This document shows, piece after piece, positions 2,530-23,018 of a stretch of DNA of 24,000 nt. The notes beneath the pieces are model-generated. The model worked only from the letters and a program-made list of their open reading frames with translations. It had not been told where the DNA came from and searched no databases. The stretch covers positions 18,609 through 42,608 of the forward strand of contig CAUPZH010000006.1 in NCBI GenBank assembly GCA_963515865.1. Reading direction: 5' to 3'. A program made the translations under genes and the position numbers. This stretch comes from an uncultured Veillonella sp. Its GTDB lineage: Bacteria; Bacillota; Negativicutes; Veillonellales; Veillonellaceae. The first letter of the stretch is position 1; each line of letters starts with the position of its first letter.

Positions 2530-4464
2530 ATGGCAGGAAAAAGTTTAATCTATAAAATATTAGAAACTCATTTAGTAGAGGGAACACTGGTTGCAGGTGA
2601 AGATATTGCTGTTGCCATAGACCAAACGTTAACACAGGATGCCACAGGGACTATGGCATATTTAGAATTTGAATCTTTAGGGTTAGATAGAGTAAAGACC
2701 CTATCTGTATCCTATGTAGATCATAATACATTACAAGATGGATTTGAAAATGCAGACGATCATAAATATTTACAAGATGTAGCAAGTAAATATGGTATTT
2801 ATTACTCAAAAGCAGGTAATGGGATTTGCCATCAAGTACATTTAGAACGATTTGCTAGACCAGGTCAAACTTTAGTAGGTGCAGATAGTCATACTCCAAC
2901 TGCTGGAGGCTTAGGAATGTTTGCTGTCGGTGTTGGGGGTATGGATGTGGCGGCATCTATGGCAGGAAAGCCATTCCATTTAACTTGTCCAAAAGTTACT
3001 AATATTAAATTAAATGGGCGTTTACAAGCTTGGTGTGCAGCAAAAGATATCGTGTTAAAAGTATTAAGTATTTTAACCACTAAAGGAAATGTAGGAACAG
3101 CCATCGAGTATACAGGAGAAGGCGTAGCATCTTTAACAGTACCGGAGCGTGCAACAATCACAAATATGGGGGCAGAAATGGGGATTACTACATCCATTTT
3201 CCCAAGTGATGCAAAAACAAAAGAATTTTTACGAGCTCAAGGTCGTGAAGATGTATGGGTAGAATTGCAGCCAGATGAAGATGCGCAGTATGATGAAGTC
3301 ATTGAAATTGATCTAAATGCATTAGTGCCTATGATTGCATGTCCACACTCTCCAGATAATGTAAAAACAGTAGCAGAATTAAAAGATGTTGTAGTAGACC
3401 AAGTACTAGTAGGAAGCTGCACCAATTCCAGTTATCGAGATTTAATGATGGTAGCAGCAATGTTGAAAGGACGTAAAATTCATCCAGATGTGAGTTTTGG
3501 GGTAGCTCCTGGATCCAAGCAAGCATTAGCAATGATTACAAAAAATGGAGCCTTAGCAGATATACTTGCTTCTGGAGCACGTTTGTTTGAAAGTGCCTGT
3601 GGATTCTGTGTAGGTTGCGGACAAGCGCCACGAACAAAATCTATTTCTTTACGTACAAATAACCGTAACTATGAAGGTCGTAGTGGGACTAAAGATGCCT
3701 TAGTGCATTTAGTTTCAGTAGAAACAGCGGTAGCCTCTGCTTTAATGGGAACGATTACAGATCCTCGTGAAATAGGGATAGAAGTACCAACAATTGAGCT
3801 TCCTGAGGTGTATGAAATTGATGATTCCTTGATTGTTGCACCAAAATGTGATGTAAACCAATCTATTTTACGAGGTCCTAATATTGGAGAGCCTCCTAGC
3901 AATATTGCGTTACCAGAAATAATTTCTGCTAAAGTGACGATCAAAGTAGAAGATAAAATTACAACAGATCATATTATGCCAGCTGGACCATATTTGAAAT
4001 TTAGATCGAATGTACCTAAATATAGTCAATATGTATTTAGTCCTGTAAAACCAGATTTTGCAGAAGAATGTAAAGAAAATGTTGAGCATGGATACTATAA
4101 TGTGATTGTAGCTCGTGAAAGTTATGGACAAGGATCTTCTCGTGAACATGCCGCACTTTGCCCAATGTATTTAGGAGTAAAAGCAGTGATTGCAAAATCT
4201 ATTGAACGGATTCATATGGATAATCTTGTGAACTTTGGTATTTTGCCTTTATTATTTGAAAATGATGCAGATTATGAGAGTATTCAAGAAGGTGATGAAT
4301 TATTCTATCATTGTGATGATGCTTCCTTTGCAGCTGGTGTATTTACCGTAGAGAATAAAACAAAATCTACTATGTATAGATTAAGAACACCATTAAATGA
4401 ACGACAATTAGAAATTGTTCGAGCGGGAGGTAAATTGAACTTCTTGCGTAATGGTGGGCAATAA
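2530..4464 (+). CDS. aconitase-family hydro-lyase (short, ~640-aa single-chain type; substrate not assignable)
   Basis: Aconitase motifs are present: DQTLTQDATG, GADSHTP, GSCTNSS, CGFCVGCG (Fe-S cysteines), and the swivel-domain motif YGQGSSREHAA. RBS taggagg lies upstream of the ATG at 2530. Confidence 0.9.
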   Translation: MAGKSLIYKILETHLVEGTLVAGEDIAVAIDQTLTQDATGTMAYLEFESLGLDRVKTLSVSYVDHNTLQDGFENADDHKYLQDVASKYGIYYSKAGNGICHQVHLERFARPGQTLVGADSHTPTAGGLGMFAVGVGGMDVAASMAGKPFHLTCPKVTNIKLNGRLQAWCAAKDIVLKVLSILTTKGNVGTAIEYTGEGVASLTVPERATITNMGAEMGITTSIFPSDAKTKEFLRAQGREDVWVELQPDEDAQYDEVIEIDLNALVPMIACPHSPDNVKTVAELKDVVVDQVLVGSCTNSSYRDLMMVAAMLKGRKIHPDVSFGVAPGSKQALAMITKNGALADILASGARLFESACGFCVGCGQAPRTKSISLRTNNRNYEGRSGTKDALVHLVSVETAVASALMGTITDPREIGIEVPTIELPEVYEIDDSLIVAPKCDVNQSILRGPNIGEPPSNIALPEIISAKVTIKVEDKITTDHIMPAGPYLKFRSNVPKYSQYVFSPVKPDFAEECKENVEHGYYNVIVARESYGQGSSREHAALCPMYLGVKAVIAKSIERIHMDNLVNFGILPLLFENDADYESIQEGDELFYHCDDASFAAGVFTVENKTKSTMYRLRTPLNERQLEIVRAGGKLNFLRNGGQ

Positions 4465-4542
4465 TTAGGAATAACAGTTAATAAATTAGAGTAAGTGATG
4501 GCACAGTGCAGACTGTGTCATCCTCTATATGTGAGGTGTATG

Positions 4543-5709
4543 ATGAAAGATTATATGAAATTACCCGTATTATATATGCGTGGCGGAACTAGTAAAGGAG
4601 CTTATTTATATGCTCCAGACTTGCCAACAGATTCAACAGAACGAGATGCAATGATCCTATCCCTCTATGGGAGTCCAGATGTACGACAAATTGATGGGAT
4701 TGGAGGAGCAGACCCTTTAACGAGTAAACTGGCTATTGTGGGACCTGCTTCGGTGGAAGGATGTGATGTAGACTATACATTTGCTTACGTAGGTATCGAT
4801 ACGGCAGTTGTCGATTATGAAGGTAATTGTGGTAACATTTCATCTGGAGTTGGTATTTTTGCTATGTTACGTGGTTTGGTAGAACTAGTCGAGCCAATCA
4901 CTGTAGTTCGCATACATAATACGAATACCCATAAAATTATAGAAGCTCATATCCCTGTACAAGATGGATTACCAGTGGTAACAGGAGACTTTGCCATCGA
5001 TGGAGTTCCGGGTACAGGGGCACAAATTATGCTCTACTTTCAATCCCCTAGCGGTTCTAAAACTGGGAAATTATTGCCAACGGGGAATGCGCGAGATACC
5101 ATCACTTTGGAAGTGGGAAATACGCATACAGCGAAGAATAATCATAGGATAGACGTAAGTTTTGTGGACTCTGCCACACCGGGTGTATTTGTGAAAGCAA
5201 AAGATTTAGGATATATAGGAACAGAAATGCCAAGTGATATCGAAGCAGATGCAGAGGGTCTATTAGATATATTAGAGGATATTCGTAGGACTGCCGCTGT
5301 CAGAATGGGATTAGCTACATCAAAAGAAAGCGCTAGTCCAGCCATTCCAAAGGTATGTATGGTGGGTACTGCTTCTACGTATACCGATATACAGGGCCGC
5401 GTGATTGAGGGTGCATCGATAGATATAGTAGCACGAACAAAAGCATTACAAGTGATTCATAAGGCCTATGCAGTCACTGGCGGTATTGCTACTGCAACAG
5501 CAGCACTTATTCCAGGGACGATTGTCAATGATGTGGTCAGTGAAGAGGCTAAGCGTACGAAAACCGTTACTTTGGGTCATCCAAGTGGGACTTTTACATT
5601 TAATATTGATATAGATACAGAGAGTCTATATGTTACCAAAGCTGGTGTAGCAAGAACTGCTCGTCCTATTATGGATGGCATTGCCTATGTTAAAGTTGGT
5701 AAATACTAA
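4543..5709 (+). CDS. PrpF-family isomerase (methylaconitate/aconitate isomerase-like)
   Basis: YMRGGTSKG lies near the N-terminus. TSKLAIV and EGNCGNISSGVG match the PrpF catalytic Lys/Cys regions. I moved the start to the ATG at 4543 (GAGG at 4533-4536, 6-nt spacing). The longer 4495 start has no RBS. Confidence 0.85.
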   Translation: MKDYMKLPVLYMRGGTSKGAYLYAPDLPTDSTERDAMILSLYGSPDVRQIDGIGGADPLTSKLAIVGPASVEGCDVDYTFAYVGIDTAVVDYEGNCGNISSGVGIFAMLRGLVELVEPITVVRIHNTNTHKIIEAHIPVQDGLPVVTGDFAIDGVPGTGAQIMLYFQSPSGSKTGKLLPTGNARDTITLEVGNTHTAKNNHRIDVSFVDSATPGVFVKAKDLGYIGTEMPSDIEADAEGLLDILEDIRRTAAVRMGLATSKESASPAIPKVCMVGTASTYTDIQGRVIEGASIDIVARTKALQVIHKAYAVTGGIATATAALIPGTIVNDVVSEEAKRTKTVTLGHPSGTFTFNIDIDTESLYVTKAGVARTARPIMDGIAYVKVGKY

Positions 5710-13251: not shown

Positions 13252-14280
13252 ATGGTTGATTTAACGAAATATGCAGCCAAGGGTGGTTGCGCGTGTAAGA
13301 TTGGGCCTCATATCTTAGCGGATGTGTTGCAACATATGAAGATGCCTACACATCCAGCTGTATTGACCGATGCATCTGGGATGGAAGATGCTGGAGTGTA
13401 TCAAATTAATGACAGTCAAGCCATTGTACAGACGGTGGATTTTTTTACCCCTCCAGTGGCAGATCCGAGACTCTTTGGTCGTGTGGCAACTTGTAATAGT
13501 TTAAGTGATATATATGCTATGGGGGGCACTCCCATATCAGTATTGAATATTGTAGCCTTTCCGGTACCTTTAGTGAAAGAAGGTATCCTTCGTGAGGTAT
13601 TAGAAGGTGCCAATGAGGTCTTACTAGAGACAGGAGTAGCGCTTCTTGGTGGTCACAGTATCGAAAATGAAGTGCCTGTTTTTGGAATGGCTGTGACAGG
13701 TCTTATCGATCCTCGTCATATTTGGACCAATGGGGATGCTCAAGTTGGTGATGTGTTGATTCTATCTAAACCGATTGGAACTGGAATTATGAACACGGCT
13801 GCGAAAGGTGGCGTATTTCCTGAAGGCGTAGAGGAAGCGATGCACAGTATGGGAACGATTAATAAAGGAGCTCGAGATGTGGCGGCGCAGTTTACCATTC
13901 ACGGTTGTACGGACATTACAGGATTCAGCTTGATTGGTCATGTATCTGAAATGGCAAAAGCTAGTGGAACATCTGTGGAACTCTATGCGGAGCAAATTCC
14001 TCTCTTTACCGATGTAGTAGAGGCTGCTAGCATGGGCTTAGTCCCAGCATCTACGTATGGGAATCGTAAGGCATTAGGTGATCAAGCTGAGTTTGCTGAC
14101 CATTTAGATCCAGTATGGAGCGATATTTGTTTTGATCCGCAAACATCAGGTGGTTTATTATTTGCTTGTTCTGAAAGTGAAGGAAAACAGTTACTTTCAG
14201 CGTTACAAGCAAAGGGTTTACAGGCCGCACAGATTGGCCGTGTTATTCAGGAAGGAAGGAAACAAGTCTATGTCAAATAA
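13252..14280 (+). CDS. selD: selenide, water dikinase (selenophosphate synthetase), Cys form
   Basis: N-terminal KGGCACKIGP (the SelD Cys/Lys active-site loop, using Cys codons TGC/TGT rather than TGA). It has an AIR-synthase-like fold and typical length (342 aa). RBS aggagaggg. Confidence 0.92.
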   Translation: MVDLTKYAAKGGCACKIGPHILADVLQHMKMPTHPAVLTDASGMEDAGVYQINDSQAIVQTVDFFTPPVADPRLFGRVATCNSLSDIYAMGGTPISVLNIVAFPVPLVKEGILREVLEGANEVLLETGVALLGGHSIENEVPVFGMAVTGLIDPRHIWTNGDAQVGDVLILSKPIGTGIMNTAAKGGVFPEGVEEAMHSMGTINKGARDVAAQFTIHGCTDITGFSLIGHVSEMAKASGTSVELYAEQIPLFTDVVEAASMGLVPASTYGNRKALGDQAEFADHLDPVWSDICFDPQTSGGLLFACSESEGKQLLSALQAKGLQAAQIGRVIQEGRKQVYVK

Positions 14281-15142
14281 AGAAGTAACGATAGATATGC
14301 GAGGCCAAGTATGCCCAGCACCAGTGATTGAAGCAAAGAAGGCGATGGATGCCGATGCAAATACGTATGTAAAAGTCATTGTCGACAATGATGTGAGCCG
14401 TGACAATGTGGTGAAATTAGGGGAATACCGAGGCTATGAAAACCATGTATTAGAACAAGAGGGAAATTATATCGTTGTGTTGATTCCTCCTACAGCGGTG
14501 AAAGAGGAAGTAGCTACAGCTAGTGCTGCCAACATTCAAACGTCGAATGATTTAGAGGACCTAGATTTGGAAGCTATTTTTGAAAATGAATTTGCCGCAC
14601 CCCTAGGAAAGGTTGTAACGAATACAACAATTGCTGGTGGAGAGGCCCCATTTTATATGACAAATGGAACAGGTAGCTTGGAACGTAGCATTGCAGCTTA
14701 TGAAAAAACAAAAGCAGAAAAAGCAGCAATGGGTGCACCAATTAGCCAAGATACAGTGCCACCCGAATTGATGGGAACTGCGGTACCGTCTGTATCAACC
14801 TCTTCTATGGGTGGTAAAGTGCTACTATTCACGAAGGATTATTTAGGCGAAGGTAGTGAAGAGTTAGGCCGTAACTTGATGAAAACGTTCATCTATGTAT
14901 TGACGGAAACAGATGTGAAACCCAAAGCCATCTATTGCATTAATAGTGCTGTAAAAATGCTCGTAGAAGGGTCTGAACATATTGAAAACTTCAAAGCCTT
15001 AGAAGCAGCAGGGGTAACTGTTAGTGGCTGTGGCATTTGCTTAGACTTTTATGAAGTAAAAGACAAAGTGCAAGTAGGCACCATTACCAATCTGTATGCT
15101 ATCACGGAAAGTATGATGCAAGAACCCTTTGTTACATTGTAA
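14270..15142 (+). CDS. yedF: YedF-like selenium-metabolism protein: TusA/SirA-like N-domain plus DsrE-like C-domain, with a long internal linker
   Basis: The start ATG at 14270 follows ggaaggaagg and overlaps the selD stop by 11 nt. The N-terminus has MRGQVCPAPVIEAKKAM (the TusA CP motif). The C-terminus has LGRNLMKTF...CINSAVKML...SGCGICLDFY...VGTITNLYAI, typical of YedF. Confidence 0.8.
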   Translation: MSNKEVTIDMRGQVCPAPVIEAKKAMDADANTYVKVIVDNDVSRDNVVKLGEYRGYENHVLEQEGNYIVVLIPPTAVKEEVATASAANIQTSNDLEDLDLEAIFENEFAAPLGKVVTNTTIAGGEAPFYMTNGTGSLERSIAAYEKTKAEKAAMGAPISQDTVPPELMGTAVPSVSTSSMGGKVLLFTKDYLGEGSEELGRNLMKTFIYVLTETDVKPKAIYCINSAVKMLVEGSEHIENFKALEAAGVTVSGCGICLDFYEVKDKVQVGTITNLYAITESMMQEPFVTL

Positions 15143-15262
15143 CTGGATGCTTAGTGAGATAGATAGGTATCACTGGAAAGATTGAATGAGGGACAGGGGG
15201 TGTCTGCTTTGGAAGTAATTAGTCAACAGCTTAAGATATCTATAGATAAGGTATCACGAAAA

Positions 15263-15505
15263 ATGCTTATACTATTTAGCTCTTATTATTTTGCTGACAA
15301 AGCAGATAAAACGCTAGGGCAATATAAAGTACCTCATCAGTTGATGCCAGTTCCACCAGAACTATCTAGCGCTTGTGGGCTCTCTATTGGTGTGCAAGAA
15401 GAATACATAGAAGAAGTGTTGCGTATCTTTGAAGTAGAAAAAATAACCCCTTCTCATATGTATTATTATGAAAAGGGAAAAGAACCGATAGAATATAAGC
15501 GTTGA
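15263..15505 (+). CDS. DUF3343-family small protein (putative Se/S carrier-like)
   Basis: MLILFSSYYFADKADKTLGQYKVPHQLMPVPPELSSACGLSIGV fits the DUF3343 pattern (FxS..A...E..L...xPxPxxxSxxCGxxI). The start is ambiguous: GTG 15200 and TTG 15182 are both in frame. Confidence 0.65.
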   Translation: MLILFSSYYFADKADKTLGQYKVPHQLMPVPPELSSACGLSIGVQEEYIEEVLRIFEVEKITPSHMYYYEKGKEPIEYKR

Positions 15506-21324: not shown

Positions 21325-21579
21325 ACTACCTCCCAAAACTAACTTACCCATATAATATGATGTTTAATAACTTTTAATTTTACCACTATATATACTATAT
21401 GTCTATAGCTGCTAAGGGCTATTGTCTCTTAAAAGAACATAGTGTATAATGATGACAATTCAGTTATATCAATAGATATAGCTTGGTATGTTGCATGGAA
21501 AATATAGAGGTATATAATTTTTGCATACATCTATGTTTTTGGCGCAATTATTATGGTGGAGACACTGGAAAGGCGTTCT

Positions 21580-22386
21580 ATGTTAGGAGCAATCATTGGA
21601 GATATGGCGGGCTCTATTTATGAGTTTGATAATATCAAAAGCCGAGAATTTGAGTTCTTGTCAGAACGATGTGAGCCTACAGATGATTCGATTTTAACAT
21701 GTGCTATTGCACGAGCTTTAATTGATGTAAAAGGAAGGGGGACACATTTACAACGAGCTACTATCTATCGTATGAAAGAATATTTTCTTTCCAATCCATT
21801 ACCGATGGGTGGATTTGGTGCAAAATTTTTCCAATGGGGGTTATCTGATGCGACTGATCCCTATGGTAGTTGGGGTAATGGAGCAGCGATGCGTATTAGT
21901 CCTGTGGCTTACGTAGGGAATAGTGAAATGGAAGTCAAACTGTTGAGCCAAATTGTAACAGGTACCACCCATAATGATCCGGAAGGATTAAAAGGTGGAG
22001 AAGTGACGGCTTTAGCCGTGTTCAAAGCACTTCATGGAGCGACGAAAGAAGAAATTCAAGAAATGGTACGATCCTATTATCCTGGTGAGTACAGTGTGGA
22101 AGAGTTGCATAAGACTTATAGGTTTGAGCCAAGCTGTCAAAAAACAGTGCCAGAAGGAATGCAATGTTTCTTTGAAAGTGAAGACTATGAATCGGCTATT
22201 CGCAATGTAATGTATATCGGCGGTGACTGCGATACATTAGGTGCCATTGTCGGTGCTGTGGCAGGAGCCTATTACGGAATCCCAGAATGGATACAAGAAA
22301 AAGCCTTATCCATGATGCCAGATTACATGGTGGAAGACTATGAAGATTTCAAAGCCATGTATATAGACAAAGAAAAAACCCTCTAA
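21580..22386 (+). CDS. ADP-ribosylglycohydrolase-family protein
   Basis: MLGAIIGDMAGSIYEF at the N-terminus and GGDCDTLGAIVGAVAGAYYG at the C-terminus are ARH/DraG-family metal-site motifs. I prefer the ATG at 21580 (GAAAGG 7 nt upstream). The ATG at 21553 is an alternative. Confidence 0.85.
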   Translation: MLGAIIGDMAGSIYEFDNIKSREFEFLSERCEPTDDSILTCAIARALIDVKGRGTHLQRATIYRMKEYFLSNPLPMGGFGAKFFQWGLSDATDPYGSWGNGAAMRISPVAYVGNSEMEVKLLSQIVTGTTHNDPEGLKGGEVTALAVFKALHGATKEEIQEMVRSYYPGEYSVEELHKTYRFEPSCQKTVPEGMQCFFESEDYESAIRNVMYIGGDCDTLGAIVGAVAGAYYGIPEWIQEKALSMMPDYMVEDYEDFKAMYIDKEKTL

Positions 22387-22508
22387 AGCTAACGCTGGAC
22401 ACGCATATTGCCTTTGAGGGTATGATACAAGGGGCCGGAATCCCCTATGCAATTGTATTGTACCATGTGTAAGGCAATGACGATAGAGAGAAAATAGAAT
22501 ATGATAAA

Positions 22509-22548
22509 AATAGTGGAGACTTCTCTTGTGCGAGTAGTCTCCCTATTT
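22509..22548. terminator. hairpin (stem GGAGACT/AGTCTCC extended by ATAG/CTAT), first of two tandem terminator-like structures
   Basis: aatagtGGAGACTtctcttgtgcgagtAGTCTCCctattt. T-rich sequence flanks it on both strands. Confidence 0.5.
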
Positions 22549-22557
22549 ACTATTGAC

Positions 22558-22592
22558 GAAAAAAAGAACCTGCCCGCCGGCAGGTTCTTTTT
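22558..22592. terminator. strong bidirectional intrinsic terminator
   Basis: aaaaaaaGAACCTGCCcgccGGCAGGTTCttttt is a GC-rich 9-bp stem with A and T runs on either side. Confidence 0.9.
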
Positions 22593-22819
22593 AGGATGAT
22601 GATGTACGCCCATACAAAATCATGACAACTATATCAACACTTTGAGTGCTAATACCATAATGGTAGGTTCACTTGGCCATGATAAGGCGATCATCAATAT
22701 GTGACGTATCCCATACAACGCATATTGTAATAACAAAAAATCCTTTTTCTTGTGTTTTGGAGTATCAGAAAAAGGCCTTTGATTCTCCTCCCTATCTCTC
22801 GTAGGTCAAGTGGTGAATG

Positions 22820-22975
22820 ATGAATAGGCAGTTCTCCTGACTCAGCTTCAATGCGCCTCCAGCCTTCCCAGTTTCCCAGTGACATAATTGGATTTGCTCT
22901 GCTTTACAGTGGCGGGACCGTGCCAGACTTTAACTGGCTTCTCTATTATGCTTTCGCACCTATTCCCGAATGTTT
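22820..22975 (-). promoter_or_regulatory. cobalamin (B12) riboswitch aptamer
   Basis: The minus strand has the conserved elements in canonical order: GGGAAtaGGTGcGAAAGC ... GGCaCGGtCCCGCCACTGTAAA ... CACTGggaaacTGGGAAGGC ... the B12 box AGTCAGGAGAACTGCC (22842-22827). Confidence 0.88.
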
Positions 22976-22989
22976 GATTGTATGTGTGT

Positions 22990-23018
22990 ATTGTACTCTT
23001 TTGGTTTTTCAATGTCAA
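22990..23018 (-). promoter_or_regulatory. promoter driving the cobalamin riboswitch transcript
   Basis: Minus strand reads TTGACA (23018-23013), exactly 17 nt, TACAAT (22995-22990). The aptamer begins about 10 nt after the predicted start. Confidence 0.7.

Follow-up and report, generated by a model that had tools for sequence, protein, structure and literature searches.

What does a cobalamin riboswitch control when no gene follows it? The question is raised by a locus on the minus strand of a 24,000-nt stretch of DNA from an uncultured Veillonella sp. (assembly GCA_963515865.1, contig CAUPZH010000006.1, positions 18,609 to 42,608), which we call the window and whose own numbering is used for the coordinates below. 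A preliminary description, made from the letters alone, had reported an orphan riboswitch with its own promoter and terminator, and had offered two explanations, a B12-responsive regulatory RNA or the relic of a deleted gene. To our knowledge few riboswitches control a non-coding RNA (EutX/Rli55 and AspocR), and all of these are tied to eut/pdu metabolism in Bacilli. Veillonella needs cobamides for methylmalonyl-CoA mutase, and its central propionate pathway is B12-dependent. We propose, with a probability of roughly 0.5, that the locus is an independently transcribed, protein-free RNA gene, in which a 5' cobalamin riboswitch would place a conserved 3' effector domain under the control of B12.

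A cobalamin riboswitch with its own promoter

The near-consensus promoter and the cobalamin aptamer with its B12 box that had been recognized by eye were both borne out (Table 1). The promoter agrees with the sigma-70 consensus at 11 of 12 positions; its two hexamers are invariant in 22 loci, the spacer and upstream flank are variable, and upstream of about 23025 the sequence diverges or holds insertions. Transcription is predicted to start near 22983, about 5 nt before the aptamer, and the long transcript predicted from there to 22559 measures about 425 nt. Rfam family RF00174 matches the aptamer over its full length (model positions 1-189 of 189) with 98.9 bits (gathering score 31.5) and an E-value of 6.6e-24; the match aligns the B12 box AGUCAGGAGAACUGCC, identifies the element as a cobalamin riboswitch and is the sole Rfam match in the window. 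The aptamer is a paralogue of that of the Veillonella parvula mutA riboswitch.

The unit is found in more than 36 Veillonella genomes and contigs, always at a single locus with the order MATE-ADPRH-RNA-thrC (ADPRH, ADP-ribosylglycohydrolase), and its carriers form one clade of human-associated Veillonella. A protein search with ADPRH returned 21 species-level Veillonella genomes (89-95% protein identity), all 21 of which carry the intergenic RNA unit, and the next matches, at about 50% identity, belong to other phyla. A 22-mer from the 3' core matched 14 metagenome contigs, every one at the same locus. An nhmmer profile run over the 104 loci gathered likewise recovered only this locus; the sole genome-wide scan was anchored on ADPRH, so that copies at other loci of other species could escape it. 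Upstream of thrC in Veillonella with ThrC of 74-83% identity (V. parvula-like, others and V. montpellierensis) other genes are found and there is no space for the RNA. Around MATE relatives at 62% and 53% identity synteny is absent and no riboswitch lies close by, and the B12-box pattern found no cobalamin riboswitch adjoining ADPRH relatives outside Veillonella.

Table 1. Features of the RNA unit and its flanks, in window coordinates.
Feature	Position	Strand	Basis or remark
sigma-70 promoter TTGACA-17-TACAAT	23018-22990	-	top site of scanned region
-35 TTGACA; 17-nt spacer; -10 TACAAT	23018-23013; 22995-22990	-	
Cobalamin (AdoCbl-type, adenosylcobalamin) riboswitch aptamer with B12 box AGTCAGGAGAACTGCC	22978-22810	-	RF00174
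Apo-state antiterminator	22840-22764	-	predicted by folding
P13-like platform helix AUUC (22818-22815)/GAAU (22785-22782)	22818-22782	-	predicted
T1, candidate riboswitch-gated intrinsic terminator	22780-22735	-	inverted repeat and U6
Hairpin H1 CAAUAUG...CAUAUUG, variable apex UGUAUGGGAUACG	22727-22695	-	inverted repeat, in least conserved stretch
Hairpin H2 AUGAU-CGCCUU-AUCAU (hexaloop)	22694-22679	-	sequence
3' core, proposed effector domain	22659-22593	-	67 nt invariant
H3 UACCA-UUA-UGGUA; H4 UAUUAGCACU-CAA-AGUGUUGAUA	within 22659-22593	-	
H5 UGAU-UU-UGUA-UGGGCG-UACA-UC-AUCA; single-stranded tail UCCU	within 22659-22593	-	
T2, strong terminator AAAAAGAACCTGCC-GGCG-GGCAGGTTCTTTTT and T-run (3' part also GGCAGGTTCTTTTTTT)	22592-22559	-	14-nt perfect inverted repeat, -22.2 kcal/mol
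T3, terminator GGGAGACU..AGUCUCC and U-rich tail	within 22558-22500	-	-17.7 kcal/mol
T4, strong terminator CCCUCAAAG/CUUUAGAGGG and U6	22420-22373	-	-18.6 kcal/mol; 3' arm overlaps ADPRH stop codon
ADPRH gene	21553-22386	+	PF03747; convergent with RNA
MATE transporter gene	past ADPRH	same strand as RNA	flanking gene
Threonine synthase gene thrC	start 23190	+	divergent from RNA

Conservation and coding potential downstream of the aptamer

Pairwise identities of the RNA segments and of ADPRH were taken from the same genomes. The mean is 0.985 for the aptamer, 0.979 for the platform (22809-22750) and 0.982 for the 3' core (22670-22593), with the linker between them (22749-22671; 0.934) being the least conserved part of the RNA. 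At the third codon positions of ADPRH it is 0.746 (192 of 278 variable), and in the 60 nt past T2, where these are not deleted, it falls to 0.33. Among 30 distinct sequences from 37 loci, two blocks have no variable column at all, the 40 nt of 22817-22778 and the 67 nt of 22659-22593. The conserved block as a whole spans from just upstream of the -35 hexamer to T2, and judged by these comparisons it is the footprint of a discrete functional RNA gene, on which purifying selection appears as strong after the aptamer as on the aptamer itself. The post-aptamer RNA is thus very probably functional. Since this part is conserved like the aptamer, and since nearby synonymous sites have diverged by about 25%, neutral decay of the leader of a lost gene is rejected, and with it the earlier suggestion of a relic.

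The statement that no open reading frame (ORF) with a plausible start follows the aptamer, and that the 63-aa and 74-aa ORFs merely run through the aptamer and the terminator, stands. The longest ORF past the aptamer has 35 aa and a TTG start (22736-22629, minus strand), which most species have lost (G22734A); indels of 1 nt disrupt all three frames in several lineages, and no reading frame downstream of the aptamer was found to be conserved across species. A protein search with the spurious 74-aa ORF that spans T2 gave one match, within the clade. Translation of a very small protein has some features in its favor: a 9-codon AUG ORF, MVLALKVLI (22658-22629), lies inside the invariant block, and GGGAGGAG looks like a strong Shine-Dalgarno (SD) sequence, after which a non-canonical start could be imagined. 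On the other hand, the micro-ORF has no SD sequence, 67 nt without any synonymous change are a non-coding pattern, no start codon lies in range of GGGAGGAG, and the same element is common to the mutA platform, where it sits about 250 nt ahead of the gene. An AUC start right after GGGAGGAG was considered and rejected, its frame being shifted in 7 of 22 loci. We regard a translated product as scarcely credible.

Platform, antiterminator and candidate terminator T1

The alignment to the V. parvula mutA riboswitch covers the aptamer and the ~45 nt after it. Kennedy et al. (2022; PMC9600662, Table S1) list this riboswitch among the transcriptional ones, and it is one of those they tested in a B. 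subtilis reporter. The shared platform motif is ACCTACGAG[A/C]GATAGG[G/A]AGG[A/G]GA (RNA: ACCUACGAG(A/C)GAUAGG(G/A)AGG(A/G)GA). According to structure prediction, its purine tract folds back in both RNAs onto the stretch that directly follows P1, and the resulting P13-like helix is AUUC/GAAU here versus AAUC/GAUU in mutA, which amounts to one compensatory exchange. The helix encloses ACUUGA and a small hairpin, CCUA-CGAGAGA-UAGG (22805-22791), and the SD-like GGGAGGAG (22792-22785) falls inside it. Because GGGAGGAG pairs within a predicted platform helix that is common to the mutA riboswitch, we read it as a structural strand of that helix and not as a stranded ribosome-binding site.

Two further features come in addition to those described earlier, an internal terminator-like repeat (T1) and an antiterminator that involves the B12 box. 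The stem of T1 consists of CCUUUUUCU (22775-22767) and AGAAAAAGG (22750-22742), separated by a 16-nt loop and followed by A-UUUUUU (22741-22735); the arms of the full inverted repeat (22737-22750 and 22767-22780) are 14 nt long and 86% complementary, and 8 of the 9 stem pairs are invariant. When the nucleotides of the aptamer and of P13 are withheld, T1 is the minimum-free-energy fold. In the alternative structure, the B12 box and the 3' strand of P1 (UCAGGAGAA..GCCUAUUC, 22840-22822) pair with GAAU..AGGC.UUUUUCUGA (22785-22764) and sequester the 5' arm of T1. Folding 22840-22722 to its minimum free energy gives this antiterminator, at -22.5 kcal/mol, and RNAalifold selects the identical B12-box pairing from 20 species. 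From these folding models we somewhat favor T1, about 60 nt past the aptamer, over the final T2 as the gated terminator.

The 3' domain and terminator T2

Over its roughly 140 nt, the 3' domain (22734-22593) gives no Rfam match, even when E-values of up to 10 are admitted; no tRNA-like element was found in it, and it has no plasmid or phage matches. The hairpins and the SD-like sequence of the preliminary description had been placed correctly (GGGAGGAG at 22792-22785, GGAGAATCA/TGATACTCC, CAATATG/CATATTG, ATGAT-cgcctt-ATCAT and TGTA-tgggcg-TACA). Over 20 species, 99.8% of the cells in the proposed helices are paired. Two pairs of H1 differ on one side only and can still form a wobble, with G-U in place of A-U in 4 species and U-G in place of C-G in 1. 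H2 has a wobble change, a mismatch and a 1-nt deletion in 3 species. Overall, 6 of 8 changes at stem positions keep the pairing through wobble transitions and no pair is altered on both sides; such changes support the helices weakly, with p at about 0.02 by our own rough estimate.

The strong final terminator that had been described was confirmed as T2. It is flanked by an A-run and a U-run and looks bidirectional; its stems are fixed among species and its loop GGCG varies freely. A terminator scan missed it, probably since the stem runs into the A and T runs.

A ~140-nt, highly conserved domain directly before a strong terminator, with sequence invariance like that of an aptamer core, could also be a cis element, either a second ligand sensor that governs T2 or a module that stabilises or processes the riboswitch RNA. 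Tandem riboswitches in which each has its own terminator are known. However, in most species no coding sequence follows T2 on the minus strand and the next gene is convergent, a conserved pairing that would compete with T2 was not found, the lone T2-like segment GAACCUACC (22669-22661) varies more than any other part of the domain, and an Rfam match is absent. Such a function in cis is decidedly unlikely.

Could the 3' domain be a binding site for an ANTAR regulator, as in EutX? The ANTAR element has been described as two hairpins of at least 3 bp with hexaloops carrying A1 and G4 and a linker of 5-12 nt, and an AANGRR loop closed by a C-G pair is described for its sites (PMC3369931). A loose pair of this kind can be drawn in the core, UGAU-AUAGUU-GUCA (22636-22623) and UGU-AUGGGC-GUA (22616-22605) with a 6-nt linker, and a pair of this type turns up in 4.6% of dinucleotide shuffles; we take it as a lead and no more. 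Its second stem holds only U-G, G-U and U-A pairs and loses out to the stronger register UGUA-UGGGCG-UACA; neither loop fits AANGRR, and neither is closed by a C-G pair. The stable hexaloops of the domain, CGCCUU and UGGGCG, are non-ANTAR and lie 58 nt apart, and we find no convincing ANTAR site in the 3' domain.

Neighboring genes and possible roles in cis

The convergent neighbor is an ADP-ribosylglycohydrolase, as had been predicted, and it is convergent with the RNA in all 21 GTDB Veillonella species and in all 14 metagenome contigs. Its start is probably the second Met (window 21580); in one locus (L015, 5001-5030) the longer frame has a stop at codon 9. In two contigs closely akin to the window (L110, 2380-2720, and L113) a 984-nt cassette comprising ADPRH, a downstream block and the tail of T3 (window 21531-22514) is precisely missing. 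Both keep the RNA intact, about 250 nt upstream of MATE and on the same strand, and from the RNA to thrC they match the window at 95.5% (L110) and 99.2% (L113) identity. The state without ADPRH looks derived, that is, like a deletion, because a promoter-like site facing ADPRH (21422-21450) remains and the breakpoint cuts into T3. A third locus, L023 (5001-5840, from a metagenome-assembled genome), has an intact RNA next to an ADPRH with a frameshift near codon 64, which may reflect a pseudogene or an assembly error.

The constant convergent arrangement invites the proposal that the RNA acts on ADPRH as an antisense transcript like AspocR, with read-through past T2 in the absence of B12 repressing ADPRH by antisense pairing or transcriptional interference. 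Its geometry is that of the Listeria AspocR/pocR pair, and no other candidate for a target in cis adjoins the RNA. Against it, up to three minus-strand terminators (T2, T3 and T4) precede the ADPRH coding sequence, a 67-nt invariant block would not be needed for plain read-through, the RNA is intact where the cassette is deleted or ADPRH frameshifted, and ADPRH has no known link to B12. We consider this proposal unlikely.

The cassette-less contigs also allow the RNA to be seen as a long 5' leader of MATE that was split by insertion of the ADPRH cassette, and cobalamin riboswitches do often precede transporters. However, the arrangement without ADPRH looks derived, T2 and the stem of T3 still lie between the RNA and MATE, MATE has a promoter-like site of its own (21405-21377), and no riboswitch lies close to its relatives of 62% and 53% identity. 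No significant repeat is common to the RNA and the region upstream of MATE. The cassette deletion, the frameshift and the intervening terminators together argue against both the antisense role and the MATE-leader role; a leader of MATE or of a lost gene is highly improbable.

The flanks of the unit change readily. Of the 22 aligned loci, 8 lack the 60-nt segment 22500-22558, which holds T3, and in the others it is hypervariable. In six species a three-gene insertion abuts the conserved block near the -35 hexamer. One of the inserted genes (L009, 6560-7587; L021, 6655-7679; L118, 937-1808) encodes a rhodanese-like protein, another a Cys-rich protein of 86 aa for which a signal peptide is predicted, and the third a DUF4236 membrane protein; all three lie between the RNA promoter and thrC, are co-directional with the RNA and end ~30-50 nt upstream of the -35.

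A second small minus-strand unit (22465-22373) was noticed past T3, with an extended -10 element TGgTACAAT (22465-22457) and a hairpin GGGG..CCCC (22445-22431), followed by T4. Its pairwise identity across species is 0.948, and it could be a ~78-nt small RNA antisense to the 3' end of ADPRH or, equally, a structure of the ADPRH 3' untranslated region.

The 19 ORFs annotated in the window include none related to B12, eut or pdu, and none that encodes an ANTAR, two-component or histidine-kinase protein; the association with eut, pdu or ANTAR that the preliminary description had suggested looking for was thus not found there. Elsewhere in the window, an aconitase-family gene lies beside a PrpF-family gene (2530-5709), and a SelD-like gene of the AIR-synthase family is followed by genes with TusA-like and Se/S-carrier domains (13252-15505), none of them with an evident link to B12.

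Proposed mechanism and its assessment

We propose the following sequence of events for the RNA gene. Transcription would start near 22983 from the near-consensus promoter. With cobamide bound, the aptamer would hold the B12 box and the P13-like helix, freeing CCUUUUUCU to pair with AGAAAAAGG; T1 would form, and transcription would stop near 22735, leaving a transcript of about 250 nt. When cobamide is lacking, the B12 box would pair with the CCUUUUUCU segment as an antiterminator, and read-through of 22734-22593 to T2 at 22559 would yield an RNA of about 425 nt. Because T1 would stop transcription before the 3' domain when cobamide is bound, this domain would be made only under B12 scarcity, and it might then act in trans on mRNAs by base pairing or by titration of an RNA-binding protein. 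Gating at T1, the two isoforms and the action in trans are what we infer from the predicted structures. That the long form acts in trans is a tentative step, which we hold at slightly less than an even chance. More tentative still is the full description as a cobamide-gated trans riboregulator with an undescribed ~140-nt effector domain that pairs with mRNAs or titrates an RNA-binding protein unrelated to ANTAR and eut.

Several results weigh against this proposal. T1 is a weak and atypical terminator, AU-rich with a 16-nt loop and a predicted energy of -8.0 kcal/mol for the core and -10.4 kcal/mol when extended, and it is nearly isoenergetic with a competing hairpin, GGAGAAUCA/UGAUACUCC, which the preliminary description had pointed out. 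Covariation is absent (neither the 122 predicted nor the 64 proposed pairs include a compensatory one), the sequences being too similar; thus, of the conserved arrangement with compensatory changes in the downstream hairpins that had been envisaged earlier, the ORF-less arrangement is conserved and the compensatory changes are missing. The label of a structured transcript holds for the whole RNA, which folds with z = -2.6, but taken by itself the 3' domain shows no exceptional stability (z = -0.65). Two folds of this domain compete, the local hairpins H1-H5 and a long-range fold in which GAUGAUCGCC pairs with GGCG..AUCAUC and AUCAUGGC with GUCAUGAU. In the latter, which the minimum-free-energy fold prefers, H2 gives way and its sequence instead serves as the 5' partner of GGCG..AUCAUC from H5. 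H1-H5 are therefore predicted helices, none of which is proven. Moreover, the RNA is known at one locus of one clade, and its conservation could stem in part from shallow divergence.

The search for targets adds to these points. When scanned for duplexes with the 18 translation-initiation regions of the window, the 3' domain did no better than shuffled sequences. The pre-terminator tail of the RNA, UCAUCAUCCU, is complementary over 10 nt to the thrC ribosome-binding site AGGAUGAUGA in the window; however, most members of the clade carry AGGAUGAAAG there although the RNA is invariant, and thrC was rejected as a target. The V. parvula mutA leader proved no more complementary to the RNA than shuffled sequences are. 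Of the earlier idea of a B12-responsive regulatory RNA, the part that calls for a functional RNA is thus favored by conservation, and the window scans yielded no target or partner.

The proposal can be tested directly, as it predicts two RNA sizes, a defined stop at T1 and a 67-nt core, and natural strains with and without the neighboring gene are at hand. If it is correct, an RNA made under B12 scarcity could link cofactor supply to central metabolism in an abundant gut and oral commensal. The locus would add a case in a diderm Firmicute, Veillonella, away from B12 genes and with an effector of an undescribed type that is as constrained as the aptamer.

Comparison with known riboswitch-controlled RNAs

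In sequence, the RNA is related to the V. parvula mutA riboswitch, with which it shares a paralogous aptamer, the first ~45 nt of the platform, the purine tract and the P13-like helix. The leader there runs into mutA-mutB-meaB, whereas here no gene follows, and it shows no similarity to the terminator or to the whole 3' domain.

The SAM (S-adenosylmethionine) riboswitches SreA and SreB of Listeria also act in trans, and in this respect they resemble what we propose, a riboswitch-derived RNA with a trans function. They are, however, leaders of genuine operons, cut short by termination, whereas our RNA belongs to no operon and its effector would lie in the part made by read-through, not in the terminated aptamer.

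AspocR of Listeria, antisense to pocR, is likewise an orphan cobalamin riboswitch convergent with a neighboring protein gene, and its short and long isoforms depend on B12, as is predicted for the RNA here. In contrast to AspocR, ~430 nt lie here between the aptamer and the convergent gene, which include a conserved domain and two to three strong terminators, and the RNA persists where the neighbor is deleted.

In layout, the RNA resembles EutX of Enterococcus faecalis and Rli55 of Listeria monocytogenes, sponge RNAs under the control of an AdoCbl riboswitch. As in these RNAs, there is an ORF-less transcript with its own promoter and a 5' AdoCbl riboswitch, as well as a predicted B12-stabilised terminator just past the aptamer, such that the effector part would be made only without B12; in EutX, a B12-gated terminator controls the effector part (PMC5821096). 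On the other hand, the window has no eut, pdu, ANTAR or two-component genes, a canonical ANTAR dual hairpin is missing and A1/G4 loops arise only in a weak alternative register, a comparison with Rfam, not a direct alignment with EutX or Rli55, gave no match for the 3' domain, and the host is a Negativicute. Judged on sequence, the layout is that of EutX/Rli55, but the defining ANTAR site and eut context fail or stay weak here. If our proposal is right, the principle known from EutX/Rli55 would extend to a new phylogenetic group and to a non-eut regulon.

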